Assembly (NCBI GenBank): GCA_000091205.1
Contig: AP006500.2
Origin: Cyanidioschyzon merolae
Taxonomy: Eukaryota
Length of the DNA: 64,000 nt
Strand: one strand, 5' to 3'
A program made the translations under genes and the position numbers. Within the stretch, counting starts at the first letter, position 1. Each line of letters starts with the position of its first letter. Shown piece by piece: positions 8,171 to 40,037 of the stretch. The notes under the pieces are model-generated. The model was not told where the DNA came from, ran no database searches, and saw only the letters and a list, made by a program, of their open reading frames with translations.

Positions 8171-8249
8171 GGCTCTTTTGTTCTGGCATCATATTTGTGT
8201 ACATTCGTGTATGAGCGAAATGGAACGAGTCCCCGTAAATCGGGCGGAC

Positions 8250-9100
8250 GCACTAAAGTTTAGGTCCCTTCCAGCTGTTATGAACACCAGTTTTTGTGGA
8301 CTTTTTCTGCGACTGCTTCCTCTGCCTTTCTTTTACCCCGGCTTTACATGCGTCGGTCTCTCGTCTCCCTCCACCTGCTTTAACAGGTATCGAAGGTTGT
8401 CGATACCGTCGTCTATCAAGGACAGTCGCTTCTTTCGTTTGTTGACAACGCGTTTCATGGACAGGTGGAAGCTGCGATGCATGCTTCGCTTGCCGGTTTC
8501 ATATCCTTTTTACACAGGCCTGGTACGCAATTCGCAGCGGTGACACTCGGCCGTGGTCAGGTGTTTTCATGAGACCGCAGCATCTACGTTTCCGAGGGTC
8601 GCCCTGTGGCGCGCGAACACTCGCTTCATCCCAAGATGAAAGCACGTTACCGGCACATATCGCTCTCGCCGATGCTCTTCTCCGTTTCCGCACCTGGTGT
8701 CGTGCTCGACGATCATGTGCCTCTTCTGAGCGATCATCTCTACGAGTGCTCTTTCCGCCGTGCATACAAGCGCGTACTTCTCGATTCTATAGAGGAATTG
8801 CGGAACGCGATGTTGTCCGCGATGGAACACTTCCCGGAAAGGGAATCCCGGCTGGAGGCGATGTCGAGAATTCTCCAATCCTTTTCTACACACTCCGTAG
8901 AAAGCGAAAACGCTCTTTCCACTGGATCTGAACGGTGCGATGCCTAAAGTCCAAGACGATTTCCCATGCAAACAGAGGAGACGGGAGCCTCTGGGAGCAT
9001 TTATCATGAGACGCGTTATGCTGCCGTCAAACGCCTTTTCCGCCATCGTCACAATGAGAGGAGGATTTGTCTTTTGAACGGGATAGATCATCTCGCGCCA
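8250..9100 (-). pseudogene. Degenerate relic of a type-2 TnpB/Fanzor-like nuclease gene (copy Y)
   Basis: 8441-8505 is nucleotide-similar to 29945-30010. The minus-strand translation FHLSMKRVVNKRKKRLSLIDDGIDNLRYLL corresponds to the FRLCMKRVDNRCKWLIRDFNAAAEVVRLL tail of copy X, but the Cys residues and the RD/NAA residues are mutated. Confidence 0.35.
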
Positions 9101-10161
9101 CAAGTTCAGTGAACTTTCGGCATGAACGTGTACATAAGCCTTTAAGAGACGACGAGGATAATGTTTATCGTCAATCTGGTGAGACGATGCGCTGCACCCG
9201 CCGTTTGTGTTGGAACAGAATGATCGGTAGCCTAAAAAATGCGCGACTGGAGCATGGAAGCCGTAAGGAAATGAGAATGATAGAGCCTCATACGTGTATA
9301 TCGGGTAATCATATCGTTTATTTTACGAATACTTGTTCGATGGCGTCGCAAATTATCACGATTCCGGTGAGCTTACGAACTCCAGCGGCGGTCGGTCGAA
9401 AGGGCGGCTCCAAAAAGATGTCCAAATATCCTCGAAAGACGTGTCAATCCGTGACCCATTAATGCCGCACTTCGAATATCGAGGCTGCGCGCCTAAAACA
9501 GTTCGAAAGAATCGAAACAGAGGAAGAGAGCGAGCACCACAGTGCTCTATTCTGGTCTGACACCATCGCCTCGCCGTCTCGTGCGAGACACTGCGTTTCG
9601 CGGCATCGCCGGACGACTCGTGAACTGCTTCATTTTGTGCGTTGAAGGCGCCATTCGCGGAGCGATCCACCTCTAAAGTTGGATGCCCAACTCGAAGGCA
9701 TATGATGAAGAGCGTAACGCAGAAGACTGAGTTACAGCCCCTTCGGACTAGTCACCCAATCACGGGCATGGCGAGTGTCCTTCCTAGACAGGGTGTAGCG
9801 GCTTGTTTTCGTTGTACCACATCCATTTTATACTCGAAAGACAGATCCGCCGAGTCTTTCCACCGTTTCCTTTCTCTCTTAACGGCTATCGGCTCTGCTG
9901 TGCTGCGAGACCCCAACTTGCTCGCAGACTTTTGGCCCTTACCAAAGCACGTTCAATGCATGTCAGCTTCTACGAGCACACGCGGCATGCCCACACCTTA
10001 CGCATCCACCATACGAATGAACGCTGACCCATCAGGAACTTCCGTGGCGAATGCCCAGAACTCTACTGCACACGCGGTGTGCAACCTGTCCTTCGATCGT
10101 CGTGTTACGCTCCACCCGTCCCGCCATCTGTTCAGTCCGATAATAATGTTCGATAGGACCT

Positions 10162-11073
10162 TCAGCCCCACCATTGCATGTTGCCACCAGTGTAGTACTG
10201 CTGCTGCTGCTGCTGCTGCTGCCCTTTCTTAACTTGGGCGTACTGCTGCTTCTGTTGTTGTCCTTTCTGAAATTTGGCATACTGCTGCTTCTGTTGTTCT
10301 TGTTGCTGCTGCTGTTGCACGATCTGCGTAGCCTGTACCTGCTCTTGCTGAGCCTGTTGGCAAACCTGGACATTTTGATACTGCTGGCAAACCTGCTGGT
10401 ACCCTGTGCACTTCTGGCCGTACTGTGCGCATCCTTGCTCGTATTGCTCGCATTTGCCTTGTTGATACTGTGTGCACTTGTTCTCGTATTGCGCACACAC
10501 CTGTTCGGTTTGGTACTGCGTGGTATACTTCAGACACTTGTTCTTGTTCTGTTGGTACTTTGCGCACACCTGCTTGCAAACCGGCGTCTGCTGCCATCGG
10601 CGCATTGCGCCGTTCCATCCTTTCTTCTCCTGAACAGCCGCGGAAACCTGCTGCTTCTGAGGTGCTGGGGCAGGCGCAGGCTTCTGTGGTGCGACTTGTT
10701 GTTTTTGTTGCTGCTGCTGCTGCTGCTGCTGCTGAGCAACCGCCGATATTTGCTGCTGCTGCTGCTGCTGCTCGCAGCTAGAAGTGTATTCAACGCACTC
10801 CTGTGCATATTGTGCGCAGACCTGCACCGGCTTTTGCACAGTCTGGTACTGCACGCACTGCTGTTCCTGCTTCACGCACTCCTGCGCATACTGCTTGCAC
10901 TGCTGAATAGGCTGCAGGCATACCTTCTGATAACCAGTGCACTGGTTGCCATACTGAACACACTGCTGCTGCGTACTGCACTGTTGGTTCCAGGCAAACA
11001 CACCGGTTGTTACGGCACAGAAGGCCCAGACCAGAAGCACGACACGAGCAAAACTTGAATATCTAGACGACAT
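10162..11073 (-). CDS. Secreted cysteine-module Gln-rich protein, paralog B
   Basis: ATG at 11073 with signal peptide MSSRYSSFARVVLLVWAFCAVTTGVFA. An N-terminal Cys module (CSTQQQCVQYGNQCTGYQKVCLQPIQQCKQYAQECV...) is followed by polyQ runs and MRRW, then the second conserved 10-Cys module (CKQVCAKYQQNKNKC...GKCEQYEQGCAQYGQKCTGYQQVCQQYQNVQVC). The tail is Q-rich and ends in WWG. Confidence 0.7.
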   Translation of the reverse strand: MSSRYSSFARVVLLVWAFCAVTTGVFAWNQQCSTQQQCVQYGNQCTGYQKVCLQPIQQCKQYAQECVKQEQQCVQYQTVQKPVQVCAQYAQECVEYTSSCEQQQQQQQISAVAQQQQQQQQQQKQQVAPQKPAPAPAPQKQQVSAAVQEKKGWNGAMRRWQQTPVCKQVCAKYQQNKNKCLKYTTQYQTEQVCAQYENKCTQYQQGKCEQYEQGCAQYGQKCTGYQQVCQQYQNVQVCQQAQQEQVQATQIVQQQQQQEQQKQQYAKFQKGQQQKQQYAQVKKGQQQQQQQQYYTGGNMQWWG

Positions 11074-16676: not shown

Positions 16677-19120
16677 GATTAGCGTTCTCTGGTCTCAGGT
16701 TAACATTCGGGGCGCAGGCAGACTGTCGACAATTTACAAACGCTTCGAGACACCTCACCAGCGATCGCACAGAGCTCCTCTGTGCTCGATGCGGTGGCAG
16801 GTTTGAGCGTCTCGCATGTCTAGCGCGCATGCGAAGAACTGATGGCACGTGAGCGACGGCAGCAGCAGCAGCAGCATCCCTGATGATAAATTCCGAACAA
16901 GTCCGCGCGAATATCTGCACGAGTGGCAGAGAGGCTTTTCCTAGTCCGGCGATATCCTTAGCGGCTGCGATCATACGTTTTACTCTACGAGTCCTGTCGC
17001 GGTTCCTTTTGCAAAAGTCTCGTACACTTCGAGAAGCACGAGATGCCACTGCCTCGCGTCTGTGGCAGCAAACGCTGTGCAAAACGGCCGAGCCGCATGA
17101 TATGCTGCCAACCGAATCGCTCCGAGTTGTATATTGCGAGGATACGAGATCCAATGAAGTGGCTCTCGGAGTTTCCCGAGAACGACGCCGCAGCGACCGT
17201 GGCGCTGTGCACCTTTTTCTGAGTCACTGAGAAGGAGCGTTATGGCCTGGGCCTTGCAAGAAACACTCGCCCAAGCCAGCATGCTCCGAAGCGCCTGCGA
17301 GTCTTTGCGGTACTTTGGTAGGCATTCCGATCTGCAGAGCTGATCTCACGGCTTTCTGCGACCTCGATTGAGGATACCGCTGGCGGGATGCGCCATCCGA
17401 ACGACCCTGGGCCAAAAGCGAGCGTGCAGTTTTCAGAAGAAACTTCTAGGTCTCTAGTACGAAAATCCTCCCACGGAATGGACGAGCTCTATTAAGAGAC
17501 GCTGCAGCGAGCAAGCAGCAACGCCAGTGGGAGTCGCAGTTCCTGTAGGTACGAGACATACGCCTCAACACGCTCTCGGCTTGCAAGCGAGTTCTGTAAA
17601 CGGTACAGGAATGACATTGACATGGCCTCCGCAATCTGTATTCAATCTACTGGGAAGAGGCGCTCATGCTGGATATCTTTTCGCAATATCTCGGGTATGT
17701 AGGCGAATAGCATCATCTTTGCCAGTTGCGCGATAAATAATAACGCTTGCTTATGGGGTTTATGATCAATTTGCTGGGAAGACTCGTCGATGCGTTACTC
17801 ACAAGCCGATGGACGTGCGGACAACATGTTCGAATCATCGATCGTATACCCTGCAAAAGTAATATGTACCGTCTCCCGTGCTCATGGATGTAGGAAAATT
17901 AGTTTTGATATTCCGACACCGTCGCATGAAAAGCAGAATGATCCCCAATTGCGCAGCTGCAACTTTTTGTTCGACAGAAGGTTTACCTGGACCAGCTATC
18001 CCAGAATGGAGGATGGGTACTGGAAATCTAAAATGCGTTCATCATACTGCACCCTACCTTCGAGCTCTATTACCCATGCTTCCTCTTGGATGTACTGGTC
18101 TTTTTGTACTTTCTATCGTGCATCGATTGTCTGCTGTGAGCATCCGCAATAGCACCTATGCAATTGGTACGGATGTGACACAGAGACAGAGTGGCTTTGC
18201 TATACCACTGACAGCATCAGCTCGAGGAGTGCTGCGCTCGACACGGTGTCAAAGTACATAATCATTCTGGGAGCCCGCAGGCTGCGCAGACAGACCTGCT
18301 GTCTGCGGCAGCGCGAAGCGGTATTCTGGGAGATAACTGCAACAAGGGCGACGCATAGACACATTCTACCCGCTCCGAGTGACAGAATAAACTGCGTTGC
18401 GGACGAGTTGCGCAGATCTCACTATAGTGCCCGCCACTGGGAGGAGCATGAAGCGTATGCGGGGCAGATTCGTCCCGCTCGCGGGACCTTTCGCCAAGAA
18501 GGTAAACATTTGACGATATGGAGAGCTTTCCCCTTTTAATGTTTATCGTAGAGGGGGAATGGATTTTTTATATCGTTGGTAGTTCATGGTTAGTCTCTGT
18601 TCTTTTTTCTGTATGGAGCAGTCGATACAATCACCTCTATATCTGGCAGGCACGAGACAGGATGGGCATCTCGCCGTTGAAGCGAAACGCGTTCCTGAAG
18701 AGTATCATGTTGATCTAACAAGATGTATTTGCATTGAAGACGGAGCAATCTATAGTTCAGTCTAATTATGTTCCAACTTTCAAGTGAGTACATTCAAGTG
18801 ATTCTTCGCACTATGTAACGGAGGCGTTCGAAGAGCGTCCTTTTTCAAAAAAGACACTAAAACAGGAAAGTTATGGGAAAGCGAGTCGACGAGCCCTGAG
18901 GCCCAGTGTCGCCGGCTGCCTGAAAAAACAAAAAACAGTGCCGAGTCAAGAAGAAAAGGAAAAGAAAAAGAAGCGAAATGGAGAGGCCCTACGTCGAAGG
19001 CTGCAATAAAGACGACAGTGCGACGAAATCGTAGTAAAACCCTGTCTTCGTAGACATATCAAGGGTCCGCACAAGGAAAAGTCGCAAGACGCCATCAGAA
19101 TCCATATCGCGTCTTACTCC

Positions 19121-19786
19121 ATGAGTATTATAAAGGCGCCGTTAGGACTAATGCATTTGGAGAAGGATACGTGTCGCAACGTGACGGACATCAAAACAAT
19201 TGACGTTCTGGAAGAATTTTTCAACAAGACCTTCACCCGCCACCTGATGCTTGGCACCGGGGAAACGTCGAGTGGAAATGAGCGAGCGCATGCCCTCCAC
19301 GAAAATCACGCCGAATACCGCATCAGCGGTACTCGATCCAGGGGCGACTTGTGTATTGACACCTGCGGGGCAGTCAGGTACTTCACGAACCTAAAGATCC
19401 ATTTGACCGTGAAACTCGAATGCTTCACGATACGCGTCCTGTTTGCGCTGTACTCGGGCCTCTCGCGCACAGGAATATGGGTCATTATCGATGGCATCAC
19501 GAATGATCGCCAGCACGAACAGGAGACTGAGCTCGTCGAAGAGAAGATATCACACAGGAGAACGAATGAGGCTTCTGTCATCCGTGCGGCTATGCAAGAG
19601 CATCGTGCGGACTTGGTGCTCGCGCATCCAGCAGAAAAGGTATCAGATATGAAAAAAGATGAAGAAAGATGCTGTTCCCGAGCCCTGCGCTATTTTACGC
19701 TTTTGGGCCGGGATCTGGAACGCATGGCCGAAAAGCAGCTGAGTCGCGGAAAAATGAAGATTCGGAGGAATGGAAGGCTTTCCTAA
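19121..19786 (+). CDS. Conserved ORF1 of the duplicated module (221 aa, unknown function). It could be the N-terminal WED/REC-like part of the type-1 Fanzor-like gene.
   Basis: ATG-initiated ORF that is intact in both copies (37034..37699) with ~5 aa differences. No motif recognised. It lies immediately upstream of the RuvC-bearing frames and in the same orientation. Confidence 0.4.
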   Translation: MSIIKAPLGLMHLEKDTCRNVTDIKTIDVLEEFFNKTFTRHLMLGTGETSSGNERAHALHENHAEYRISGTRSRGDLCIDTCGAVRYFTNLKIHLTVKLECFTIRVLFALYSGLSRTGIWVIIDGITNDRQHEQETELVEEKISHRRTNEASVIRAAMQEHRADLVLAHPAEKVSDMKKDEERCCSRALRYFTLLGRDLERMAEKQLSRGKMKIRRNGRLS

Positions 19787-21200
19787 TGGGTACGCGCCTC
19801 AACGTCGTTCCGATATGCAGCGCCAACTCATATTTCGTGGCAGTCTGCTCCAGCGTCCCTCATGGCATCGTGAGGGATATCTGTCCGGAGTTCGATGCAG
19901 GCAAGAAGGAGTTCATGGGCCAAAACCGGGAAACTCATTGGAAGAATATCTTCGATTTCAAACGTCTCAATACGGGCAAGAAAGGGTATTCACGGGGACC
20001 ATCGGAAGCGATGGGGCAGCCATGTGTGTACATTACCGGCGGCTGGGGGCGGATCGTCCTATCGTGCCTTCGGCTTCGCCCTCGCCGAAGCATGAAGAAA
20101 AGAAGGAGGCAGATCCTGCGACTCAGGAGGTGCAGGATAACGAGCTTGTCGCTGGCTCGGCGAAGCATGAAGAAAACAACAAGGCGGATCCTGCGACACA
20201 GGAGGTGCAGGATAACGAGCTTGTCGCTGGCTCGGCGAAGCATGAAGAAAACAACAAGGCGGATCCTGCGACACAGGAGGTGCAGGATAACGAGCTTGTC
20301 GCTGGCTCGGCGAAGCATGAAGAAAACAACAAGGCAGATCCTGCGACTCAGAAAGTGCAGGATAACGAGCTTGTCGTTGGCACCGACCCGGGGAACACAA
20401 ATATCGTTACCATCGCTGCACCCAAGCGTGCGGAAGATGGTCCTGACGTTAGCTCACGTCAGAAAGACATGCTTCTTTTAAAGTTCTAAACATAGAAATA
20501 CCATCGAGAATCGGGAATACTGAATACGAGGAAGAAAATCGAGACGTGGAATGCCGCAGTGCAAGAGCATCTGGAAGCTTTGAGCGAGCTGACGAGCCGA
20601 GGAGCGGACTTTCAGGCTTCTCGGAAATCCATGAAAGTTCGTGTTGCTCATTGGGAGGCGCTGTGGGATGAGTATCCAAAGCCCCGGTGGGCTCGTCAGC
20701 GACTGATCTTGTGCTGTGGGAAACAGGGAGCGTTCGCCAACTTTTTCAATGCGTTCGGCGCCCTCAAAGAGGACGAGAGTCAGAGGCTCGCAATAGCGTA
20801 TGGAGCAGGGCGCTGGATGACCCAAAAAGGGTGTACACAGCTCCATCGACAAGAGCGTACAAGAAGTGTGCACATCGTTTTGTCACAATACCTATCGATG
20901 AGTTCCTAACGTCCTATATGCACCATGAGCTGGGGTGCACACTTCCGAGCGTCGAGACGGAAAAGCGTCAGCGGGGCCCTGAGGATATAGCAAAGTACGG
21001 AGCGCTGACAGAGCAGCAAGTAGAAAGTAGGGCGAAAGTTCCTGGGCTACGTGCACTGGTGCGTACAACCAGTGATGGCAAGAAACGTATAGCGTTTGTC
21101 AATCGTGACTCGAACGCCGCTATCAATACCAGGAGATGTACGGTGATGGAGACGAGACCCCCGGAGTTGATACGATCCAACTTTACGCGGCAGCCTCTCA
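19770..21200 (+). pseudogene. Type-1 TnpB/Fanzor-like RNA-guided-nuclease-family gene (OrfB_IS605 / OMEGA superfamily). It is frame-disrupted and probably a pseudogene.
   Basis: RuvC-I-like NELVVGTDPGNTNIVTIA at 20367-20414 (compare the TnpB GIDLG..n.ATLS motif). The frame then breaks (stop at 20489). Further downstream are ...AIAYGAGRW / VYTAPSTRAYKKCAHRF....MHHELGC (a YTSQ.C..C-like zinc-finger region, 20830-20950) and RuvC-III NRDSNAAIN at 21101-21127 (compare dRDvNAAiNI). These motifs lie in at least three frames. Confidence 0.55.
20082..20381 (+). repeat. 75-bp in-frame tandem repeat, 4 units, encoding AKHEENNKADPATQEVQDNELVAGS
   Basis: Units start at 20082, 20157, 20232 and 20307. The last unit runs into the RuvC-I motif, so the repeat duplicates the approach to GTDPG. 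Copy B (37995..38219) has only 3 units. Confidence 0.9.
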
Positions 21201-21364
21201 AGGTGAACTTACCCAGGGACAAGTTGGAACCAGTAGTAGGTGGCCGGTCCAAAAAGACCGGGAGGCGTCTGCACGTCAGCGTACCGACATCCACACTATC
21301 GGCGTCGTGTATATGCGTCGGTATACCTGTTTGGTCTGTGGTAGCTGAGAAGCATGGCCCGTGG

Positions 21365-21964
21365 ATGCCTTTTTCGAGTCGTTTCTTTCGGCAGCTGGTT
21401 CGCGGTGTCAGCTATGTGCCGGTCGTGTACGTTGTCCACGATCTTGTCGGTACGATTGTTCCCGTGAGGGGTGCGTCTATGCAACCAACCCTGAACCCAG
21501 GTGCGGCTGCAGGGGAGCTACCTCCCGGACAAGTTAGCGGCAGTCAGGATGTCGTGTTGGTTAGCCGGCTTCTCCGCGCTGTTTGGAACGTAAGGCGTGG
21601 GGATATCGTCGTTTTGCGGTCTCCCGACGCGGGACCGCAGAAGCGACTCGTGAAAAGGGTGGCCGCTCTAGAGGGGGATCGCGTTTACAACCACCGCACT
21701 GGGAAGTTTGTGGAGGTTCCACCTGGCCACTGCTGGCTCGTAGGTGACAACCGTACGGTGTCCCGTGACTCGGCTAGCCACTACGGGCCGGTTCCGCTGG
21801 GACTCCTCGAAGGACGCGCAGTGGCGGTTATCTGGCCACCACGTCGCTGGCAGGTGCTCGCGACGTCACCAAGCACAGGTTTGTGGCTCGACACTCGGAA
21901 CAGCGAGGGAGACCAACTGCCAGCCAAGAAGCAAGTGCTGGCCAAGTCGGCAACTACGAAGTGA
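21365..21964 (+). CDS. IMP1: Mitochondrial inner membrane protease subunit, an IMP1/IMP2-type S26 signal peptidase
   Basis: ATG at 21365. Motifs: VRGASMQPTL (GxSMxPTL nucleophile Ser), RGDIVVLRSP, KRVAALEGD, GHCWLVGDNRTVSRDSASHYGPVPLGL (GDN...S.DSR.YG box D/E). The protein is about 199 aa. Confidence 0.8.
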   Translation: MPFSSRFFRQLVRGVSYVPVVYVVHDLVGTIVPVRGASMQPTLNPGAAAGELPPGQVSGSQDVVLVSRLLRAVWNVRRGDIVVLRSPDAGPQKRLVKRVAALEGDRVYNHRTGKFVEVPPGHCWLVGDNRTVSRDSASHYGPVPLGLLEGRAVAVIWPPRRWQVLATSPSTGLWLDTRNSEGDQLPAKKQVLAKSATTK

Positions 21965-22199
21965 ATGGCTGTACGTCCGGATGGTGAGCAGAGAACGGCG
22001 CTATGGAGCAGCACCCATTTCAGAATACCATACAACGGATCCGCTCAGCGAACTCGGGCGTAGACGCTCAAGTCTGGACCGCTTCGCATTGTCATCTACA
22101 AGAGGTTTTGTGGGCGTTTTCTTCGAGTACGTCCTTTTCCTCGCTCTTGTCTCCGGTATTGTATACGTCGAACGATGCATGTTGTCTTGTTGGGTTGCC

Positions 22200-23813
22200 A
22201 GTAACCGAGGCATGTCGACGGCAGCGGTAGAGTCGCGGTATCGCCTCTTCGGGCAGTTGTGGACGCGTTTCATGCCCAGGCAAAAGTTGCCATCGATGGG
22301 TCCTCTGTATGTGTATGCAACGTCGGTGCTGCGTTTGCAGCGGTGACAAACTTGGGTGTGTTCCGGCGTTCCCATGCGTCCCCAACGTACGTTCTCCCTC
22401 TCGGAAGGGCGCTTTGTGGTACCTGTACGCCAGCTCCATCACCCACCATATGGTATCGACGGGTGCAGAGGGCTTGCCCCGAGATCGTCCTCCGTTTCGG
22501 CGCCTGGTGCCGTAAACTGCGATGACGGGCTCGTTCTGGTCGATCGCCTCGGCGAGCACCAGACGCGCTGCAAACACAAGTGCAAACGCCTCCTCTCGAT
22601 GACTCAACATGCGCTGGCTTGCGCGCTCTTCGCTCCCTGAGTACGCTTTTGGCGAAACATGGCGATGATCGTGACGAGCATCGCGTTGCCGTACCTACTC
22701 GTGGGCATTGTGTGTCCACGTGCTTCACTTGTGTGCGAGCGTGCAGTCACGGCTTCTGGGACTCGCTGCTGCTTCCGTCGCTTGCTTGCTGGACGGACGT
22801 TTTTCGCGTTCATTATCTTCCGCTGATACGAAGAGTACAGGCGCGCTGGCAGAATGCACGGCTGCTGGTCCAAGTCAAGTATGCGGGCACAAAACCCGAG
22901 CAGCCATAGCTTCGCCTGTTGCCACCAGGGGTATTGGGTCTCTGTTTGGGTAAAAGAGGAGCGCAGGTGCAGGGGTCCGCACTGCATGCTCCAGGCTGGT
23001 GCAGAGTGCATTGGAGAGCATCCTCGCGAGGCGATGCATTTGTACGGGTCGTTGCTCGTCTGCGTAGTAGCTCGTCTGTGCTGTATAGGTCGTTGCTTGT
23101 CTGCGTAGTAGCTCGTCTGGGCTGTACGGGTCGTTGCTTGTCTGCGTAGTTGCTCGTCTGGGCTGCACGGGTCGTTGCTCGTCTGCGTAGTAGCTCGTCT
23201 GGGCTGTACGGGTCGTTGCTGGTCTGCGCAGTAGCTCGTCTGGGCTGTACGGGTCGTTGCTGGTCTGCGCAGTAGCTCGTCTGGGCTGTATAGGTCATTG
23301 CTCCTCTTCGTAGTAGCTCGTCTGGGCTGTACGGGTCGTTGCTCGTCTGCATAGTAGCTCGTCTGGGCAGGGGTGCTTTTCAGCTCTGACGGTGTCATGA
23401 ATCGTATGGGAGGTTCGCTGTTGTCCTTGTTGATAATGGCGATATTGGCCGATACGCTTACGCAGTCGGTCTCGACGAAAGACGCAACCTCTCCTGGTCG
23501 TATTGCGAAGCTGGTATTCCCGCAGTTTTTCCTTCCCGCTTGCATCTATTGCTTGCGAGGCATGGTGTCGCCACTGCCGAGCGGTGTTTCCTCGATGACC
23601 GTGAAGAAAAGCGGATTCGACTTGAGCACCGAATCGATTATTTGACGTGACAAATCCAGTCGACTTTCGGAACGGGCCTGCGAACAAGGCATCAAGGGGT
23701 GACGTCGAGGCTGTCTGCTCGTCAACCCAACAGAGCGCATTGCTGCGTCCACGAGTTGCCCTGAATCGGAAAGATCGAAAACTTGAAGCATGTGAGATTC
23801 GGGTATGCCACAC
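22200..23813 (-). pseudogene. Type-2 TnpB/Fanzor-like gene relic, convergent with the type-1 gene. It carries frameshifts and a 41-bp repeat insertion.
   Basis: Minus-strand frames give RuvC-I-like ARILDLDQQP (~22875), RuvC-II-like LVLAEAIDQNEPVIAVYG (~22553), zinc finger TPEHTQVCHRC...FCLGMKRVHNC (22348-22260) and RuvC-III-like YRDSTAAVDM (22237-22211). These lie in three different frames. The tail is clearly homologous to copy X (29850-30083): TCRHCEW...FRLCMKRVDNRCKWLIRDFNAAAEVV. Confidence 0.45.
23035..23375. repeat. 41-bp tandem repeat (~8 units) inside the type-2 relic
   Basis: Unit gggtcgttgctcgtctgcgtagtagctcgtctgggctgtac. A 41-bp period is not a multiple of 3, so the minus-strand ORF shows a 41-aa periodicity (QRPVQPRRATTQTSNDPYSPDELLRRRATTRAAQTSNYADK). 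Copy B has fewer units (about 40860-41100). Confidence 0.85.
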
Positions 23814-25213
23814 ATAAGGAGAGAAGAAGCGAAGCAGCTTGCAAATATGAGTTGGATATCGATTTCTGTTTTTTTACGGACCCGTGTTCGGGGGTATCGC
23901 GAATCATTCTGACTCCGATGAAGGAACGCATTCCAGCGGTAAATCGTTCAAGGTAACGCTCCGAAAACACGACCAAGAATCCTAAAACTACGCGTGAACC
24001 CGTATGCCCATAGTGCTGCACTTGGAATCTTGATGCCGCAGATCCAGAGAAAAACGTTTGGATGTATCGCAAGCTAGGAAGAGCGCAAGCAGCTCAAAAC
24101 TCCATGATAACGTAATACGGTTCTAGAGACCTGCTCTGGGGCCGCGCTCCCATCCGCAGAGGCAGCGCACGAAAGCAACAGCACTAGCCAAAAAAATGAG
24201 CTCGAACGGGTTCACATATCGGCATACATTGCATTACCGATTTCGCATGGCGTGGAACTGGGGAGAGAGCATCCCAATATGGAAACGTACTCAGCCGGGC
24301 ACGCGTCTGCATCCGCAGCATATGCGCAGGTCCCGTGAAAGGACCACCTGCGGCGCCGTGCGGCCCGCGCTGCACCAGGCCAGCTTCTCTGACAGCCTAA
24401 ACAGCGCCAATGCTCCCGTGACCTGGACTACGCTCAAGGTCTAGCTCCGCAGCAAACGACGTACCTGCTGTCGCTCGCCGCCCTGAACTAAACGCACGCA
24501 CGCGTACGCGTCCTCGAGTTGGGCGCTTCACGAAAGCGACCCGAGCAGCCGCAGGCTGCAAAACGTGCTCCCTTGTTGCCTAGCGCTTTCTCACGAGAAT
24601 AACCTCGAACCGGTACGCCTTCGAAGCAAAGAAAAGCGCCTGCGAGCTCGACCTCGTATGCAGCCTATAAACGAGGCTCCTGGGGTGCTCGTTATCGAGC
24701 TTCAGTGCACGCATCGATACAGCCCCCGCCACGTTTCCCACCGAACAAAGCACCGTGATCTCTGTTGCATCGTCATGCACCAGTCACGTATCAACCTCTG
24801 CGAAAAGCAAGCTCGATGCATACAACCAACAACAACCGTACGCATCAGCAAGCAAGCATCGAAGCAGATGGCAACAAACAGTGCCCTTGGCGCGTGCTGC
24901 TGCCTCCTTCGGGAGATTGTTTTCGGACAACGCAGCAGCGATCGCGCGCGCGCGCCTCGAAGGCCATCAGCTGCAATTCGACGCTGCCTCGAAAGTGTGC
25001 GTTCGATCCGCACTACGGCGGCGCGAGCTGTCACGACTCCGGTGACCCCCAGCGAACAGTTCGCATCGAGATAGAAGTCGAAGTTTGCAACGTGGCAGTG
25101 CCAGCTTGCGCTATAGCATGGCCCCGGAGGAGGCGCCAGTCCAATGCTTCCAAAGCAATTTGTGTTTGGACTTGTTCTAGCTCGAACAACATCTGTAATC
25201 CGATTGTATCTCA

Positions 25214-27091
25214 TTGAAAGCCATGAACATGAGGCTGCTCTATCTGGCCGCTATTGTAGTGGTCCTGGCGGCGACGCTGCTGCAAAGTGCGGCCGCCATG
25301 GACTACTATCAGAAGGATATGAAACAGAAGAAGCAGTGCTACACAGTCGAGAAGTGTGTGAAGCAGGAGCGCAAATGTATCCAATATGAGAAGGTTTGCA
25401 CGCAGCCGCAGAAGAAGTGCATCCAGCACGAACTTATCTGTGTGCAGCAAGAGAACCAGTGCAAGCAGTACGAGCCCGAATACCAGAATGTTAAAGTCTG
25501 TGTTGCGTACGAGAAAGAATGCGTGCAATGGAACTATAAGGATGAGTGCCAGCAGGAGTACGTCCAACAGAACAATTACTTCTGGGGCATGAGATGGTCC
25601 AATGAGAAGAAGAAGGAGCCTGTCAAGAAACAGTGCAAGAAAGTTCAGAACGGCTGCGCACAGTGGCAGGAGAACAAGAACAAGTGCGCACAGTATGGCG
25701 AACAACAACAGAAGATCGGACAAAAGTGCTCCGACTATGTCCAGGTGTGCACGAAGACGAAACCCGGGAAATGCATCCAGTATCAGGAGACCTGCAACAA
25801 CTATCAGCAGCAGTGTGCACAATGGGCTAACGTGTGCCAGCAGTACAAGAAGGAGATCGTCTGTCCTGAACCCAAGAAGGAGCCGCAGAAGAAAGTTAAG
25901 CAAGAGCAGTACGTGAAGAAGGACAACTACGTGTGGCGAATGTACGATCAAAAGAAAAAGTATGATCAGAAAAACGTAGAGCAGCAACAGAAGAATGAAT
26001 GGTTCCAGCAGCAGAATGAGAAGAAGCAGTACTATTGGCAGCCACAGAAGACCCAGTACTACAAGAAGAATGATTACAAGAAGAATGTTTACAACGACCA
26101 GAAACAGTACTACTGGGAGCCACAGAAGACCCAGTACTACAAGAAGAATGATTACAAGAAGAATGTTTACAACGACCAGAAACAGTACTACTGGGAGCCG
26201 CAGAAGACCCAGTACTACAAGAAGAATGACTACAAGAAGAATGTTTACAACGATCAGAAGCAGTACTACTGGGAGCCGCAGAAGACCCAGTACTACAAGA
26301 AGAATGACTACTACCAAAAGAAGGACAACTACGTGTGGCGAATGTACGATCAAAAGAAAAAGTATGATCAGAAAAACGTAGAGCAGCAACAGAAGAATGA
26401 ATGGTTCCAGCAGCAGAATGAGAAGAAGCAGTACTATTGGCAGCCACAGAAGACCCAGTACTACAAGAAGAATGATTACAAGCAGAATGTTTACAACGAC
26501 CAGAAACAGTACTACTGGGAGCCGCAGAAGACCCAGTACTACAAGAAGAATGACTACAAGAAGAATGTTTACAACGACCAGAAACAGTACTACTGGGAGC
26601 CGCAGAAGACCCAGTACTACAAGAAGAATGACTACAAGAAGAATGTTTACAACGATCAGAAGCAGTACTACTGGGAGCCGCAGAAGACCCAGTACTACAA
26701 GAAGAATGACTACTACCAAAAGAAGGACAACTACGTGTGGCGAATGTACGATCAAAAGAAAAAGTATGATCAGAAAAACGTAGAGCAGCAACAGAAGAAT
26801 GAATGGTTCCAGCAGCAGAATGAGAAGAAGCAGTACTATTGGCAGCCACAGAAGACCCAGTACTACAAGAAGAATGACTACAAGAAGAACGTTTACAACG
26901 ACCAGAAACAGTACTACTGGGAGCCGCAGAAGACCCAGTACTACAAGAAAAATGACTACAAGAAGAATGTTTACAACGACCAGAAACAGTACTACTGGGA
27001 GCCGCAGAAGACCCAGTACTACAAGAAGAATTACAATCTATACGGAAAGAAAGAAAATCCATACGTTCCGCAGTATTACTACTGGGAGTGA
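25214..27091 (+). CDS. Secreted cysteine-module Gln/Lys/Tyr-rich repeat protein, paralog C (625 aa)
   Basis: ATG at 25214 with signal peptide MKAMNMRLLYLAAIVVVLAATLLQSAAA. An N-terminal Cys module is followed by WNYKDECQQ, MRW and CKKVQNGCAQWQENKNKC...GKCIQYQETCNNYQQQCAQWANVCQQYKKEIVC. After that come 2.9 copies of a 134-aa repeat rich in K/Q/Y/N/W. Confidence 0.75.
   Translation: MKAMNMRLLYLAAIVVVLAATLLQSAAAMDYYQKDMKQKKQCYTVEKCVKQERKCIQYEKVCTQPQKKCIQHELICVQQENQCKQYEPEYQNVKVCVAYEKECVQWNYKDECQQEYVQQNNYFWGMRWSNEKKKEPVKKQCKKVQNGCAQWQENKNKCAQYGEQQQKIGQKCSDYVQVCTKTKPGKCIQYQETCNNYQQQCAQWANVCQQYKKEIVCPEPKKEPQKKVKQEQYVKKDNYVWRMYDQKKKYDQKNVEQQQKNEWFQQQNEKKQYYWQPQKTQYYKKNDYKKNVYNDQKQYYWEPQKTQYYKKNDYKKNVYNDQKQYYWEPQKTQYYKKNDYKKNVYNDQKQYYWEPQKTQYYKKNDYYQKKDNYVWRMYDQKKKYDQKNVEQQQKNEWFQQQNEKKQYYWQPQKTQYYKKNDYKQNVYNDQKQYYWEPQKTQYYKKNDYKKNVYNDQKQYYWEPQKTQYYKKNDYKKNVYNDQKQYYWEPQKTQYYKKNDYYQKKDNYVWRMYDQKKKYDQKNVEQQQKNEWFQQQNEKKQYYWQPQKTQYYKKNDYKKNVYNDQKQYYWEPQKTQYYKKNDYKKNVYNDQKQYYWEPQKTQYYKKNYNLYGKKENPYVPQYYYWE
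25916..27088 (+). repeat. 402-bp coding tandem repeat (2.9 copies), each unit containing four 78-bp subrepeats
   Basis: Units start at 25916, 26318 and 26720. The subrepeat encodes KQYYWEPQKTQYYKKNDYKKNVYNDQ (26 aa). Confidence 0.9.
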
Positions 27092-28203: not shown

Positions 28204-29133
28204 ATGATCAAGAAAACTGTTTTGTGTTTTGCAGTAGCGCTGGTGCTTTGCATCGTAGCACCGATGAAGGGTGCGCAGGCCTGGTACAACACCGTAGCAC
28301 AGCAGGAGCAGTGCTATCAGAAGCAGGTGTGCACTCAGTATGACAACCAGTGCACAGGATATAGCAACGTATGTTTGCAGTGGGGCGAGCAGTGCAAGCA
28401 ATACGAGCAGGTGTGCACAAGCTGGGAAACCAAGTGCCTTGCCTATGAGGATGTTTACAAGACCACTCAGGTCTGCGCCCAGTACGCCCAGACGTGCGCA
28501 CAGTGGAACTACAAGGAGGACTGCCAACAGGTCAAGCAGGAGCAGAAGCAATACTATACTGCCGTGGAGACGCCAGTTGCAAAACAGGACTACAAGAAGA
28601 AGCAAGACTATGTCAAGAAGCAGGAGGATCAGCAGAAGAAGGACCAGTACATCTGGGGCCAAAACGGCTGGCGCTGGTACAACCAGGAGCAGCAGCAGAA
28701 GCAGCAGGTTCAGGTGAAGAAGGTCATCGAGACTCCGATCGCCACCCAGACCTGCAAGAAGGTGCAAGCTGGATGTGCTCGCTGGCAGCAGGACACCTCC
28801 AAGTGCGAGCAGTGGACTACAAACAAACAGAAGATCGGCGTTCGGTGCGCAAACAGCGCTCAGGTATGCTCCAACTACACACAGGGCAAGTGCGCTCAGA
28901 GCGAGCAGGTCTGCCTGAGTTATGGCCAGAAATGCACGGGCTACCAGCAAGTGTGCAAGTCGTACGGCTGGCAATGGGTCTGCCAGCAGGTTCAGGCCAC
29001 TGAACAGTACCAGCAGAAGCAGGTTTACGGCCAGAAGGAAGTATACGGCCAGCAACAGAAGCAAAAGTACCAGAAGGACCAAAAGCAGTACCAGGATCAG
29101 CAGAACTACTGGCAGAAGCAGTACATGTGGTGA
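28204..29133 (+). CDS. Secreted cysteine-module Gln/Lys/Tyr-rich protein, paralog D
   Basis: ATG at 28204 with signal peptide MIKKTVLCFAVALVLCIVAPMKGAQA. Modules: CYQKQVCTQYDNQCTGYSNVCLQWGEQCKQYEQVCTSWETKC, WNYKEDCQQ, WRW and CKKVQAGCARWQQDTSKC...GKCAQSEQVCLSYGQKCTGYQQVCKSYGWQWVC. The tail is Q/Y/K-rich and ends QYMW. Confidence 0.75.
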   Translation: MIKKTVLCFAVALVLCIVAPMKGAQAWYNTVAQQEQCYQKQVCTQYDNQCTGYSNVCLQWGEQCKQYEQVCTSWETKCLAYEDVYKTTQVCAQYAQTCAQWNYKEDCQQVKQEQKQYYTAVETPVAKQDYKKKQDYVKKQEDQQKKDQYIWGQNGWRWYNQEQQQKQQVQVKKVIETPIATQTCKKVQAGCARWQQDTSKCEQWTTNKQKIGVRCANSAQVCSNYTQGKCAQSEQVCLSYGQKCTGYQQVCKSYGWQWVCQQVQATEQYQQKQVYGQKEVYGQQQKQKYQKDQKQYQDQQNYWQKQYMW

Positions 29134-29849
29134 AAAACGCTGCTCTAGAAGCTGCTGGCGGTTTTCATTGCTCGAAATGAAGTGAACAAGGAATGTGGGT
29201 CAAGGTTTGGCGAATCCGAACCAGGGAAGAGGGCGGTGCTCTGCGAAGCGGAACAGCAATAGAAATGGAGCGACGGCGTGAGAGAGACAAGCCATTGAGT
29301 CATATGCTCAACCGGGTATAGACACATTCATTAAGTAAAGGAACGTTGGGATTCTGCACCCTGCATTCGCACACGACGCCAAAGGAGTAGCGCTCACGGA
29401 CGCCTGCGCCCGCAGGTGAACATGCACTGGGATACTTGATGTGACGTGCCGGCTGTCGGGCAAGAAGCTCTACGCCAATATACCGCCACAGAATCGGGTG
29501 CGCGTTTACGTCAGACTTTATCATTGGTGTAGGTTAGAGATTTTAATGAGTTGTATCCGCGCGACCAGGATTCAGTGCGAAAAAATCACTCAAACACTAG
29601 CCTCCGCCTTCGTTCGAAGAACGTCAGCCTTTCGGCGAATGCTGCCCTGTGTTCTCTGGGAATGCTACACGTGCACCGTAATGGGTTCCGTGTCCCAGAC
29701 ACATCAATGGCAGCATACTATGAAACAGGTCCATTGAGCTAACACGCACGTACACGCCAAAGGTCTGCTTCGTACCCATTGTCATCAACATCGGCCTATG
29801 CGGGCTTGTACTGCGAACGTTTCGATTTCCCCGCCCGTATCTCCCGCTT

Positions 29850-30420
29850 TCAAAACGCCTGTCTCCGCTGTCCATCTAGAATCGTTGTCAGCAGCCGAAC
29901 GACTTCTGCGGCAGCGTTAAAGTCCCGAATCAGCCACTTGCAGCGATTGTCAACACGTTTCATGCAGAGGCGGAAGTTGCGGTATACGCTTCGCTTGTAA
30001 TTGTCGCCGTATTTGAGCGCAGCCTCGGTGCGCCATTCGCAGTGGCGACAGGTGATTGTGGTCAAATGTTGTCGCATGTACACGAAATCTACTCGTCACT
30101 CGAGCGCCGCCCAGTGACGCGTGAGCGCTTGCGTCACCGCTTGGTGCATGAACTTGATGGGCACAAAAGGATGCATTCGATGCCGGCCTCGGTTTCCGCG
30201 CCCGGGAGCGTACCCTAGGACGACGGGCCTGTTCTAGGTGATCCCCCGACGAGAGCTCTGTGCGCTGCATGCGTCCATGCGAGATGTCTCGTTCGATCAC
30301 GGATTTGTGGAGCGCGATGTTGTCCATGACGAAACAAGTACCCGAGGAAATATCTCCGCATGAGAACGAGTCGAGAACTTTCGATTGGATCACGCTCGTG
30401 TCATGCGAAGAACACCGCAT
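29850..30420 (-). pseudogene. Type-2 TnpB/Fanzor-like relic (copy X), carrying RuvC-II-like, zinc-finger and RuvC-III tail segments
   Basis: Minus frames give CFVMDNIALHKSVIERD, which is homologous to LVLAEAIDQNEPVI of module copy A with the catalytic Glu replaced, followed by TCRHCEW...FRLCMKRVDNRCKWLIRDFNAAAEVVRLL (CxxC...C......C zinc finger plus RDxNAA). 30860..30960 matches the right-terminal region of the module (23900..24020): cacgacc.ag.atcctaaaactacgc. Confidence 0.45.
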
Positions 30421-31608
30421 GCTTCACTGGAAATGATTTCTATGATGATGCAAGCCTGAGTTAAAGGCGCTTTTTGCATGCAAACAAAAGGGACGCGAGC
30501 CTCCGGGTGCTGATCACGTGACAGGTATCGTGTTGTTGTCGAATGCCCTTTCGTCAATGACCGCACATATCGGACGATTCCTCTTTCGAACGAAATCCTT
30601 TATTTTACAGGACACCTGCATTGATATATCGGCATGGGGTTGTGCACAGGTCGTCAAGCAACGACATCGAGCTTTATTTACTCGCCAATCCGGTGGCACG
30701 AATCGCATCGCCTGCGAGTCGTCATGAAAAAATCCGAATATTTCAAGAAAGCGTGATTTGGGCATGCTCCACGAAAAGAACGGACACCAATCGAGTCCTA
30801 TACCTATGAACTGGATAAAGTAATCGGCGATTTTACGAGCGCTTGTTCGAAGGCTTCGCTAATCATCCTCAGTCCAGTCACGTAAAGTACGCCAGCGGCA
30901 AAGCGTCCAAGCAGCCTATCCAAATCCACGACCGAGCATCCTAAAACTACGCCCTGTTCCATAAACCTCGATTGCTGCTCTCTGAATATCGAGCATATCC
31001 AGCTACACCAAGTCTGAAACAAAATATAAAAGCAGGTATCATGCAAGCAGTCCGGGGTTCCATTTTCATTTGACGCGCGCGTCACGCCTCTGCCCACGTC
31101 CGATACTGCCATTTCGGACACGCTGACCCGCACCCGCCGCTAGTCCGTCGACATGAACCACGATCCTCTACATCTCGCGTACGGTATCCTGCTTGGTGAC
31201 GCTCGACAGACCCATACCCCAATGTCTGTTTCTCCGACGCGGATAGCTCTTTGCGATCACGCGTGCGCGCGCTCTGCCTTCGAAATGCCGCTCGCGCTGG
31301 ACAGCACGGCACCTGCCAGCACGTACGCCAGACGCATGTGTATGCGTGCCGCCACAAGATCGCCAGCACGCAAACGCAGCAGTGACACGCATCGACACGA
31401 GATCGGCATCCGAGCTGCGGATCCGTGCGCAACACGTGTCCGCGCGAATGTCGCCAGCGCCTGGATGCAACGATCGCCGCAATGCGCCGCTCGACACGGA
31501 AGCACGCCCCAGCGCTTCTTTACCGAAGAGCGAAGCCTTGTTCGATGTCCGTGGCGTCAAACAGGTGCGGAGGACAGCAGCGATGTGCACGCAACGCCGT
31601 GCTCTTGT

Positions 31609-36640: not shown

Positions 36641-37033
36641 TTTTCGTTAACTTCATAGCCAAGCACAGTTTTTCAGTTCATTTGTGTTTCACACCTCAAC
36701 TAAAAAATTCGATTGATATTTCGCAGTATATAACGGAGGCTTTCGAATAGCGTGCTTTTTCGAAAAAGACGCTAAAAAAGGAAAGTTATGGGAAAGCGAG
36801 TCGACGAGCCTTGAGGCCCAGTGTCGCCGGCTGCCTGAAAAACAAAAAACAGTGCCGAGTCAAGAAGAAAAGAAAAGAAAAAGAAGCAAAAGGGAGAGGC
36901 CCTACGTCGAAGGCTGCAATAAAGACGACAGTGCGACGAAATCGTAGTAAAACCCTGTCTTCGTAGACATATCAAGGGTCCGCACAAGGAAAAGTCGCAA
37001 GACGCCATCAGAATCCATATCGCGTCTTACTCC

Positions 37034-37699
37034 ATGAGTATTATAAAGGCGTCGTTAGGACTAATGCATTTGGAGAAGGATACGTGTCGCAACGTGACGG
37101 ACATCAAAACAATTGACGTTCTGGAAGAATTTTTCAACAAGACCTTCACCCGCCACCTGATGCTTGGCACCGGGGAAACGTCGAGTGGAAGTGAGCGAGC
37201 GCATGCCCTCCACGAAAATCACGCCGAATACCGCTTCAGCGGTACTCGATACAGGGGCGACTTGTGTATTGACACCTGCGGGGCGGTCAGGTACTTCACG
37301 AACCTGAAGATCCATTTGACCGTGAAACTCGAATGCTTCACGATACGCGTCCTGTTTGCGCTGTACTCGGGCCTCTCGCGCACAGGAATATGGGTCATTA
37401 TCGATGGCATCACGAATGATCGCCAGCACGAACAGGAGACTGAGCTCGTCGAAGAGAAGATATCACACAGGAGAACGAATGAGGCTTCTGTCATCCGTGC
37501 GGCTATGCAAGAGCATCGTGCGGACTTGGTGCTCGCGCATCCAGCAGAAAAGGTATCAGATATGAAAAAAGATGAAGAAAGATGCTGTTCCCGAGCCCTG
37601 CGCTATTTTATGTTTTTGGGCCGGGATCTGGAACGCATGGCCGAAAAGCAGCTGAGTCGCGGAAAAATGAAGATTCGGAGAAATGGAAGGCTTTCCTAA
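37034..37699 (+). CDS. ORF1 copy B (221 aa, unknown function)
   Basis: Intact paralog of 19121..19786. Confidence 0.4.
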   Translation: MSIIKASLGLMHLEKDTCRNVTDIKTIDVLEEFFNKTFTRHLMLGTGETSSGSERAHALHENHAEYRFSGTRYRGDLCIDTCGAVRYFTNLKIHLTVKLECFTIRVLFALYSGLSRTGIWVIIDGITNDRQHEQETELVEEKISHRRTNEASVIRAAMQEHRADLVLAHPAEKVSDMKKDEERCCSRALRYFMFLGRDLERMAEKQLSRGKMKIRRNGRLS

Positions 37700-39038: not shown

Positions 39039-39202
39039 AGGTGGACTTACCCAGGGACAAGTTGGAACCAGTAGTAGGTGGCCGGTCCAAAAAGACCGGG
39101 AGGCGTCTGCACGTCAGCGTACCGACATCCACACTATCGGCGTCGTGTATATGCGTCGGTATACCTGTTTTGTCTGTGGTAGCTGAGAAGCATGGCCCGT
39201 GG

Positions 39203-39802: not shown

Positions 39803-40037
39803 ATGGCTGAACGTCCGGATGGTGAGCAGAGAACGGCGCTATGGAGCAGCACCCATTTCAGAATACCATACAACGGATCCGCTCAGCGAACTCGGGCGTA
39901 GACGCTCAAGTCTGGACCGCTTCGCATTGTCATCTACAAGAGGTTTTGTGGGCGTTTTCTTCGAGTACGTCCTTTTCCTCGCTCTTGTCTCCGGTATTGT
40001 ATACGTCGAACGATGCATGTTTTCTTGTTGGGTTGCC

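Follow-up and report, generated by a model that had tools for sequence, protein, structure and literature searches.

A 64-kb window of chromosome 18 of Cyanidioschyzon merolae 10D contains, at positions 22012-24123 on the minus strand, an element that we call type 2. Type 2 is very probably a dead, internally deleted transposon of the IS630/Tc1-mariner (DDE_3) type, which is bounded by terminal inverted repeats (TIRs) and once carried a Fanzor1 gene as a passenger. The original prediction had read an open reading frame (ORF) region at 22200-23813 as a Fanzor-like lineage of its own, distinct from type 1 of the same window, which is here identified as a CMe-1A Fanzor1 element. The Fanzor-like reading stood for the C-terminal two thirds, which are the remnant of a Fanzor1/TnpB-like RuvC nuclease. 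It did not stand for a Fanzor-only element, because the locus is a chimera of a transposase N-terminus and a Fanzor. C. merolae is an intron-poor red alga, and its genome is among the most compact and repeat-poor in eukaryotes. Of four uninterrupted ORFs of the window that were compared by exact sequence, three are identical to annotated proteins of C. merolae 10D (the Rft1 homologue BAM82537, CMR328C, and CMR337C).

Anatomy of the long form

The long form of type 2, copy A, is 2112 bp in length. Its ends were taken from a DNA alignment of seven copies, and it is collinear in tblastn with two intact proteins, the DDE_3 transposase P0319 (317 aa) and the Fanzor1-like protein P0318. The order in copy A is 5' TIR, DDE_3 N-terminus, in-frame junction, Fanzor1 from about residue 130 to the end, 3' tail, and 3' TIR. 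The transposase part is the 5' quarter of the element, and the remainder is fused in frame as Fanzor1. The features of copy A are as follows.

24099-24123, minus: decayed 5' TIR GAACCGTATTACGTTATCATGGAGT, aligned to the family 5' TIR consensus CAACCGTGTCAGATGAAAATGGAAC; a TA lies just outside at 24124-24125
23522-24040, minus: N-terminus of a DDE_3 (IS630/Tc1-mariner type) transposase with one in-frame stop; includes the block 23872-23993
Inside 24007-23627, minus: first helix-turn-helix (HTH1), YGFTRSFRILGRVFGALP*TIYRW, from tblastn with P0319; equals the repeated block of the original prediction
23711-23764, minus: second helix-turn-helix (HTH2), SGQLVDAAMRSVGLTSRQ, in the DDE_3 N-terminus
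23576-23611, minus: first catalytic-Asp motif LFFTVIEETPLG, Asp now Glu, just past the end of the P0319 alignment
23500-23548, minus: transposase/Fanzor junction, …TMPRKQ*MQAGRKNC / GNTSFAIRPGEVASFVETDCVSV…, where the last DDE_3-alignable residues abut the first P0318-alignable ones (aa 128 onward)
23450-23479, minus: Fanzor1 ETDGV motif FVETDCVSVS, matching IETDGVSV of the Fanzor1 profile consensus
23041-23368, minus: 41-nt minisatellite, 8 copies, from Tandem Repeats Finder, between the junction and the RuvC core
22859-22888, minus: candidate RuvC-I ARILDLDQQP, then RLYSSYQRKIMNAKN at 22799-22843, assigned by position and spacing
22413-22682, minus: Fanzor1 helix and beta-strand, …EERASQRMLSHREEAFALVFAARLVLAEAIDQNEPVIAVYGTRRRNGGRSRGKPSAPV…, from tblastn with P0318 and hhalign
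22509-22595, minus: peptide ...LVLAEAIDQNEPVIAVYG
22337-22372, minus: RuvC-II Glu motif and first CxxC of a candidate zinc ribbon, GTPEHTQVCHRC, against VWEHYTTQKCHRC of P0318 and VDEFRTT of the profile
22253-22285, minus: peptide FCLGMKRVHNC
22211-22240, minus: RuvC-III YRDSTAAVDM, against NRDFNAAINIL of P0318; the consensus restores NRDFNAAVDIL
22012-22036, minus: decayed 3' TIR GTTGTATGGTATTCTGAAATGGGTG, family consensus GTTCCATTTTATTCTGACATGGATG; an IMP2-like gene has its stop codon about 50 bp away

The peptides quoted in the original prediction (those at 22859-22888, 22509-22595, 22337-22372, 22253-22285, and 22211-22240) were all located on the minus strand where it had placed them.

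The tblastn matches of P0319 and P0318 across the window were collinear and all on the minus strand. Residues 14-136 of P0319 matched 24007-23627 (E 1e-9), which covers HTH1 and HTH2. Residues 128-192 of P0318 matched 23542-23336 (E 4.6e-4; ETDGV motif, FVETDCVSV), residues 288-377 matched 22682-22413 (E 2e-16; helix and AYG strand), residues 370-432 matched 22414-22214 (E 0.014; GTPEH--TQVCHRC against VWEHYTTQKCHRC), and residues 481-538 matched 22249-22070 (E 0.026; RRYRDSTAAVD against TRNRDFNAAIN). At the junction, the two halves meet in the same frame near 23515, and a stop codon stands at 23546-23548. The segment 22413-22682 is read in a frame unlike that of its neighbours, with a frameshift on either side. 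The RuvC-II glutamate, which had been assigned to LAEAIDQNE, lies instead in GTPEH, aligned to VDEFRTT of Fanzor1.

As the original prediction had noticed, the block 23872-23993 is repeated beside copy X, at 30831-30952 (71% over 122 bp); a further recurrence lies near 9400-9480. The original prediction had taken this sequence (23900-24020) for the element terminus. The block is internal, since the seven-copy alignment places sharp ends farther out; it is set some 80-200 bp inward from the true 5' TIR and encodes the first HTH of the DDE_3 transposase. Each element exceeds the coordinates first given for it. Read in its true frame, the block gives YGFTRSFRILGRVFG. A test of codon phase across its 122 bp was uninformative (0.67, 0.65, and 0.68; no third-position excess). 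A reading of the N-terminal half as the WED/REC part of a Fanzor was also considered. It rested on 'collinear motifs' with CMe-1 (LFFTVIEE against hFVTID, and FSERYLERF in another frame), and it was rejected since the consensus is one open frame for a DDE_3 transposase.

Homology of the two halves

A Fanzor1 set was gathered via a CMe-1 profile (1434 matches among 1.84 billion representatives), and a broad Fanzor1 hidden Markov model (HMM) was built from 87 sequences. The consensus and profile search that the original prediction had proposed bore out the Fanzor homology: the seven-copy consensus matched the Fanzor1 HMM with 28.8 bits (E 2.4e-11), compared with at most 5.8 in 1000 shuffles. The alignment spans the AYG strand, the VDEFRTT glutamate motif, and NRDLNAALNI. 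The C-terminal part of the consensus reads KKPVIVVYGTRRGNGG...EPSVPV...YVVDiEHLTTVKCHRCEW...FRLCMKRVDN...RRNRDFNAAVDILRLL. Its N-terminal 244 residues form one open frame, which scored 34.2 bits (E 2.8e-8) against Pfam DDE_3 (PF13358), where the gathering score is 28.6; a weak match to HTH_Tnp_Tc3_2 (Tc3-type HTH) was also found in Pfam.

In hhalign, a three-copy profile scored 31 against the Fanzor1 profile; the highest score among 120 column shuffles was 25.6 (16.4 +/- 3.0; 0/120 as high). The aligned segment was ...EEAFALVFAARLVLAEAIDQNEPVIAVYG...GKPSAPV against ...KKRVFAxFFN...VVVAYG...GExSVPT, and the next-best alignment was the RDxNAA motif, which is collinear. The RuvC-II Glu followed by [TS][TS] appears as GTPEHTQ in copy A and as VVDiEHLTT in the consensus, both aligned on VDEFRTT; a second copy of the window, copy X, has Gln there. 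The first CxxC, CHRC, is conserved across all copies, and the second Cys pair falls outside the conserved columns. Pfam Cas12f1-like_TNB matched the consensus with E 0.016 and P0318 with E 3e-5 (CHRC...CEHC). In Fanzor1, a C4 zinc ribbon (TNB, PF07282) stands between RuvC-II and RuvC-III. The RuvC-III motif RDxNAA reads YRDSTAAVD in copy A, IRDFNAAAE in copy X, and NRDFNAAVDIL in the consensus.

Several other searches gave little. No match was found by phmmer among the PDB sequences with the stitched translations of type 1 and type 2, nor with P0318. A protein search with stitched copy A returned just ORF fragments of the same locus from Joint Genome Institute (JGI) metagenomes. Neither BLASTP of type 1 against type 2 nor hhalign of copy A with the CMe-1 alignment was significant. 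When the six-frame translation of the window was scanned with the CMe-1 family HMM and the broad Fanzor1 HMM, type 2 yielded only a C-terminal fragment of copy X (E 0.03, broad HMM).

TIRs and dispersed copies

Type 2 forms a dispersed transposon family with defined termini, as the original prediction had held, with at least seven insertions and 25-bp TIRs. The TIRs are recognisable at both ends in six copies, and the ends are sharp in the seven-copy alignment. When reverse-complemented, the 5' consensus CAACCGTGTCAGATGAAAATGGAAC agrees with the 3' TIR consensus GTTCCATTTTATTCTGACATGGATG at 21/25 positions. TA adjoins 5 of 12 element ends, including both ends of the copy L010, and five more ends are one substitution off. 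A TIR pattern search of the window with no more than 3 mismatches found copy X alone.

Within the window, the other copies and their features are as follows.

29702-31081, minus: short form, copy X, 1380 bp, DDE_3 aa ~1-235 joined to the Fanzor C-terminus
30538-30573, minus: copy X, first catalytic-Asp motif (D1) PICAVIDERAFD, DDE_3 part
30301-30336, minus: copy X, second catalytic-Asp motif (D2) CFVMDNIALHKS, DDE_3 part
30186-30230, minus: copy X, Fanzor C-terminus, RPVVLGYAPGRGNRG
30039-30083, minus: copy X, Fanzor C-terminus, MRQHLTTITCRHC
29901-29930, minus: copy X, RuvC-III, IRDFNAAAEV
8202-9568, minus: short form, copy K8, 1367 bp, the most degraded (tblastn P0318 aa 315-406 with 8791-8513, E 9e-10)
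9026-9061, minus: K8, D1 PLIVTMAEKAFD, DDE_3 part
8794-8829, minus: K8, D2 CSIADNIAFRNS, DDE_3 part
8534-8566, minus: K8, Fanzor part, KHLTTAECHRC
8441-8470, minus: K8, Fanzor part, FHLSMKRVVN
39850-41854, minus: long form, copy B, with the stops and frameshifts of copy A and fewer minisatellite units

The recurrence announced for 29850-30420 is real, and FVMDNIALHKS, TCRHCEW, and IRDFNAAAEV were found there; FVMDNIALHKS, which had passed for a RuvC motif, is the second catalytic-Asp motif of a DDE transposase. Likewise, 8250-9100 is a degraded relative, with 65% DNA identity to the 29.9-kb copy over 395 bp. Copy X alone scored 5.9 against the Fanzor1 profile in HMMER (shuffle maximum 3.0).

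Additional loci came from JGI metagenome contigs, which were scanned once with the three-copy alignment. L001-L006 and L007/L009 are strain variants of the window's own loci (97-99% identity). New dispersed insertions with 63-70% identity are L008, L010 (= L011), and two in L012 (= L013/L014), namely L012a and L012b. All of the new insertions carry the short-form junction, and together with X and K8 they are about 1.3 kb each and do not have the part corresponding to 23345-22562 of copy A. In the short form, the transposase is kept through the second Asp motif and is followed by the helix before the AYG strand; the RuvC-I region is entirely deleted. A simple internal deletion of copy A was considered as the source of the short form and rejected, for the junctions of the two forms differ. 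Because of this difference, the long and short forms are independent derivatives of something longer.

Copy B, at 39.8-41.9 kb, is not an independent insertion. It is part of a 5.4-kb direct segmental duplication (18792-24184 = 36707-41915, 96-99% identity), which emerged from a self-comparison of the window and had escaped the original prediction. The duplicated unit holds type 1 in the form of a 5'-truncated CMe-1A, along with type 2 and an IMP2-like gene for an S26 peptidase, which is intact. Since copy B lies inside the duplicated unit, it arose by segmental duplication and not by transposition. The left breakpoint is inside CMe-1A: the 5' 630 bp of published CMe-1A map to 17973-18599, upstream of copy A only. 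Both segmental duplicates occur in natural populations (L003, L005). The two IMP2-like peptidase copies (21365-21964 and ~39203-39802) are both intact, with 199 aa and 2 differences.

Decay of the family

Two in-frame stops and two frameshifts interrupt copy A and are common to copy B and six natural variants. The 41-nt period of the minisatellite is not a multiple of 3, and its copy number varies among A, B, and the variants, which shifts the frame. In the long form the first Asp is replaced by Glu and the rest of the catalytic triad, including the second Asp, is deleted. The short form has kept D1 and D2; every copy has lost the third catalytic residue along with the C-terminal third. On the Fanzor side, K8 has lost RDxNAA, and X has Gln at the RuvC-II position. 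Judged from their sequences, all copies are pseudogenes, and no member of the family is predicted to be able to make an active transposase or nuclease.

Intact relatives

A search of 5.8 billion proteins with the consensus returned exactly two relatives, P0319 and P0318. P0318, the closest intact relative of the Fanzor part, scored 111 bits with the Fanzor1 HMM and only 21 with the CMe-1 HMM. A profile containing P0318 matched the Fanzor1 structures 9cf0 (8.6e-20), 8gkh (6e-11), and 9cer (2.5e-6). The RuvC/TnpB fold was assessed on P0318 alone, in a predicted AlphaFold2 model (predicted local distance difference test, pLDDT, 67.5); the best Foldseek matches were the Spizellomyces punctatus Fanzor SpuFz (9ceu/8gkh, E 3.5e-10) and then Cas12f.

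P0318 lies on the JGI contig Ga0399894_004485 (L015), where an intact Fanzor1 gene of the type-2 lineage occupies ~4990-7300. Its true ORF is about 745 aa, and the gene call P0318 is N-terminally short. The 3' terminus of the C. merolae family (GTGGACCACGTGTTCCATTTTTCATTAACATAGGTGTAGG) was found 33 bp beyond this intact gene. Its neighbours, an RNA ligase, 2H-SAK, and Peptidase_S74, look viral, and the guanine-plus-cytosine content (55.7%) is C. merolae-like. Another contig, L016, carries a related DDE_3 gene whose 5' terminal sequence is similar; no Fanzor is obvious downstream of it.

Origin of the type-2 family

We propose that the ancestor carried, on a single strand, a 5' TIR, a DDE_3 transposase, a Fanzor1, a 3' tail, and a 3' TIR, and that it would have moved by cut and paste. 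Binding of the transposase to the 25-bp TIRs would have mobilised the element, whose targets were probably TA sites. The Fanzor, by analogy to characterised Fanzor1 enzymes, may have been a RuvC nuclease guided by an omega RNA or Fanzor RNA (omega/fRNA). One deletion would have given the long form (transposase ~1-170 and Fanzor ~130-end), and another the 1.3-kb short form (transposase ~1-235 and Fanzor ~315-end). Because the short form is present in at least six dispersed copies, it was probably mobilised in trans. The long form later gained the minisatellite, two stops, and two frameshifts, and the 5.4-kb segmental duplication then copied it passively with CMe-1A and the IMP2-like gene.

Two genes in this order are also seen elsewhere in the window. 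At 12750-12050 (minus strand) there is a nearly complete DDE_3 pseudogene (Pfam 51.3 bits), in which the D, D, and E motifs are visible and which has 27% identity to the type-2 transposase. Within 12750-11396 (minus strand), this DDE_3 directly precedes ~110 residues from the C-terminal end of a CMe-1-like Fanzor (11932-11396), and the same arrangement repeats in L012:1-1164 with 69% identity. The arrangement favours a two-gene ancestor for type 2 and suggests that CMe-1-type Fanzors also once rode mariner/IS630-type elements.

As a rule, the sequence for the omega/fRNA of a Fanzor stands at the 3' end and overlaps the TIR. Several results weigh against the transposon-with-passenger interpretation. 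No full-length copy with a complete transposase and a complete Fanzor was seen in the window or in the JGI contigs, and the intact Fanzor of L015 has neither an adjacent transposase nor a recognisable 5' TIR, which was searched for. The TIR boundaries were picked after the alignment was seen, and the TA duplication is suggestive only. The copy number derives from metagenomic contigs and not from the C. merolae genome itself. The raw ORFs of copies A and X, taken individually, had no match in Pfam, where the only match was that of the neighbouring gene to Peptidase_S26. ARILDLDQQP, read as RuvC-I by the original prediction, fits in position and spacing; it gave no significant alignment when compared with AIVKGLDPGRVNL…RFYSRKRH of P0318 and VVGADPGN…YYRESGIMNARK of CMe-1. 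RNAalifold gave no supported conserved structure for the 3' ~220 nt of six copies (-1.9 kcal/mol, 7 pairs); these copies are too decayed for power, and the result thus speaks neither for a former guide RNA nor against one.

The main uncertainty is between a single two-gene ancestor and the recombination of separate elements that shared TIRs. In the latter case the chimeras would have come from recombination or nesting of transposase-only autonomous elements and Fanzor-only elements, with no two-gene ancestor. Such an origin would explain why the Fanzor-only relative in L015 carries the same 3' terminus and why L016 has a DDE_3 gene with the family-like 5' end and no evident Fanzor, and chimeric sets with common 5' transposase regions and differing 3' parts have been described (Bao and Jurka, PMC3627910). 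We nevertheless consider it unlikely, since two independent junctions keep the transposase-then-Fanzor order and strand, as deletions of a two-gene element would, and since at 12750-11396 the C-terminus of a CMe-1-like Fanzor comes directly after a DDE_3 gene, both on one strand. The Fanzor-only lineage of the original prediction, with an ORF at 22200-23813 and the block 23900-24020 as its right terminus, agrees with the Fanzor homology of the C-terminal part, with the recurrence of the block beside copies X and K8, and with the L015 Fanzor of the type-2 lineage, which has no transposase; Fanzor-only elements with mariner TIRs also exist elsewhere (PUl-4, PMC3627910). It is very unlikely, as these copies already contradict it: the block matches the HTH of an intact DDE_3 transposase and lies inward of the true TIR, and the N-terminal 244 aa of the consensus, a single open frame, exceed the Pfam DDE_3 gathering score.

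An in-frame junction, together with a 313-codon ORF (22604-23545) that is open from the junction stop through the minisatellite and the RuvC-I region, could also be taken to mean that the long form is, or once was, the gene for a natural and functional protein in which the DNA-binding domain of a transposase is fused to a Fanzor nuclease, and is not a deletion accident. This is the least credible of the explanations considered. The long form is known from one insertion plus its segmental duplicate only, two stops and two frameshifts stand in all variants, the minisatellite copy number alters the frame, and the first catalytic Asp is already replaced. Beyond ORF fragments of the same locus, no such protein was found in 5.8 billion proteins, and the absence of purifying selection is in effect already observed. 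It is scarcely credible that the long form was once a functional Fanzor1 nuclease, lacking its own N-terminus, which the sequence-specific HTH domain (co-)targeted to the TIRs of the element. The transposon with a Fanzor1 passenger is therefore the interpretation that we retain. It is remotely possible that the type-2 Fanzor lineage came to C. merolae from a large DNA virus, because its only intact relative adjoins virus-like genes and shares the 3' terminus.

Type 1 and neighbouring repeats

Type 1, at 17973-21300 (plus strand), is a complete but pseudogenised CMe-1A Fanzor1 element, in which the 5' 630 bp of published CMe-1A are found with 79% identity. Type 1 and type 2 converge on the IMP2-like gene that lies between them (21365-21964, plus strand). 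Its stitched translation matched 180 family proteins with 54-73% identity, as well as the published CMe-1 protein. The CMe-1 family HMM found both type 1 copies and the remnants at 58020-57571 and 11932-11396; over the whole window it found nothing in copies A, X, or K8, and no DNA similarity was seen between type 2 and the CMe-1A 5' region. The separation of type 2 from type 1 asserted by the original prediction is thereby upheld.

CMe-1A has an in-frame 75-nt (25-aa) tandem repeat at 20081-20381 and 37994-38219, just upstream of RuvC-I. The repeat varies across the family from 0 to more than 5 units, and the type-2 minisatellite occupies the equivalent linker position. Only ~70 bp separate the 3' end of CMe-1A from the start codon of the peptidase downstream, and plus-strand open frames at 20687-21964 (425 aa) and 38384-39802 (472 aa) join the C-terminus of the CMe-1A Fanzor to the IMP2-like peptidase. 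One such read-through frame is labelled 'inner membrane protease subunit 2' by JGI (P0130, 433 aa). Fragments of the CMe-1A 5' region (67-79%) and a CMe-1 Fanzor remnant lie at 5721-5895, 62981-63166, 57033-56867, and 58020-57571; the 5' region has been equated with TE-N2_CMe (PMC3627910).

The window is unusually rich in transposon debris for C. merolae. It also holds a small family of secreted-looking proteins rich in Cys, Gln, Lys, and Tyr (25214-27091, 28204-29133 (CMR328C), and ~10162-11073), with nested 78-nt and 402-nt tandem repeats (QKQYYWEPQKTQYYKKNDYKKNVYND) and signal-peptide-like N-termini. At 54136-54563 there are about three tandem copies of a ~147-bp unit with 98-99% identity.

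Comparison with known Fanzor systems

Only one, unclassifiable, Fanzor family (CMe-1A) has been on record for C. merolae, and type 2 is a second, independent Fanzor1 lineage. It probably entered on a mariner/IS630-type vehicle, spread mainly as the 1.3-kb derivative, and died; the chimera at 12.7-11.4 kb hints that CMe-1A may also have begun on such a vehicle. The long open frames here and the read-through CMe-1A/IMP2-like 'gene' are transposon debris and not host genes. Type 2 brings neither a new mechanism nor a usable nuclease. The Tc1/mariner class is absent from the listed repeat classes annotated for C. merolae, Repbase not being covered.

CMe-1A is the listed C. merolae Fanzor1 family, whose ~150 copies are roughly 80% identical to a consensus of ~3.2 kb (Bao and Jurka 2013, PMC3627910); it has no TIRs, and its target-site duplications are given as undetermined (PMC3627910). 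CMe-1A and type 2 share the genome, the ETDGV motif, AYG...PxP, a catalytic Glu followed by TT/TS, RDxNAA, and a tandem repeat in the linker ahead of RuvC-I. Whereas CMe-1A lacks TIRs and CxxC, type 2 has TIRs, CHRC, a DDE_3 moiety, and few copies. The fold of the Spizellomyces punctatus Fanzor1 (8GKH) recurs in P0318, and its RuvC-II Glu and RuvC-III Asp motifs recur in copy A. Unlike the characterised Fanzor1 nucleases, copy A is a pseudogene in which transposase sequence has taken the place of the first ~130 residues of the Fanzor.

The transposase half resembles IS630/Tc1-mariner DDE_3 (PF13358) elements in its two N-terminal HTHs, the DE(t/s)xF first-Asp and (v)(m/l)DNxxxH second-Asp motifs, and the TIRs. 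Fanzor1 genes inside mariner-type elements are already known, and type 2 is a new but extinct member of this group. In PGv-1, PUl-1, PUl-4, and others, which include chimeric derivatives, the transposase is 5' and the Fanzor 3' within Tc/mariner elements (PMC3627910), and the Mariner/Tc1-Fanzor association was confirmed by a later survey (PMC10530073). Type 2 differs from these elements in its red algal host, in that only deletion chimeras survive, and in a TA duplication that is not firm. It is like them in being TIR-bounded, with a mariner-type DDE part 5' and Fanzor1 3'. Elements of this group have transposase-less and chimeric derivatives, TIRs of ~24-33 bp, and a target that is probably TA.

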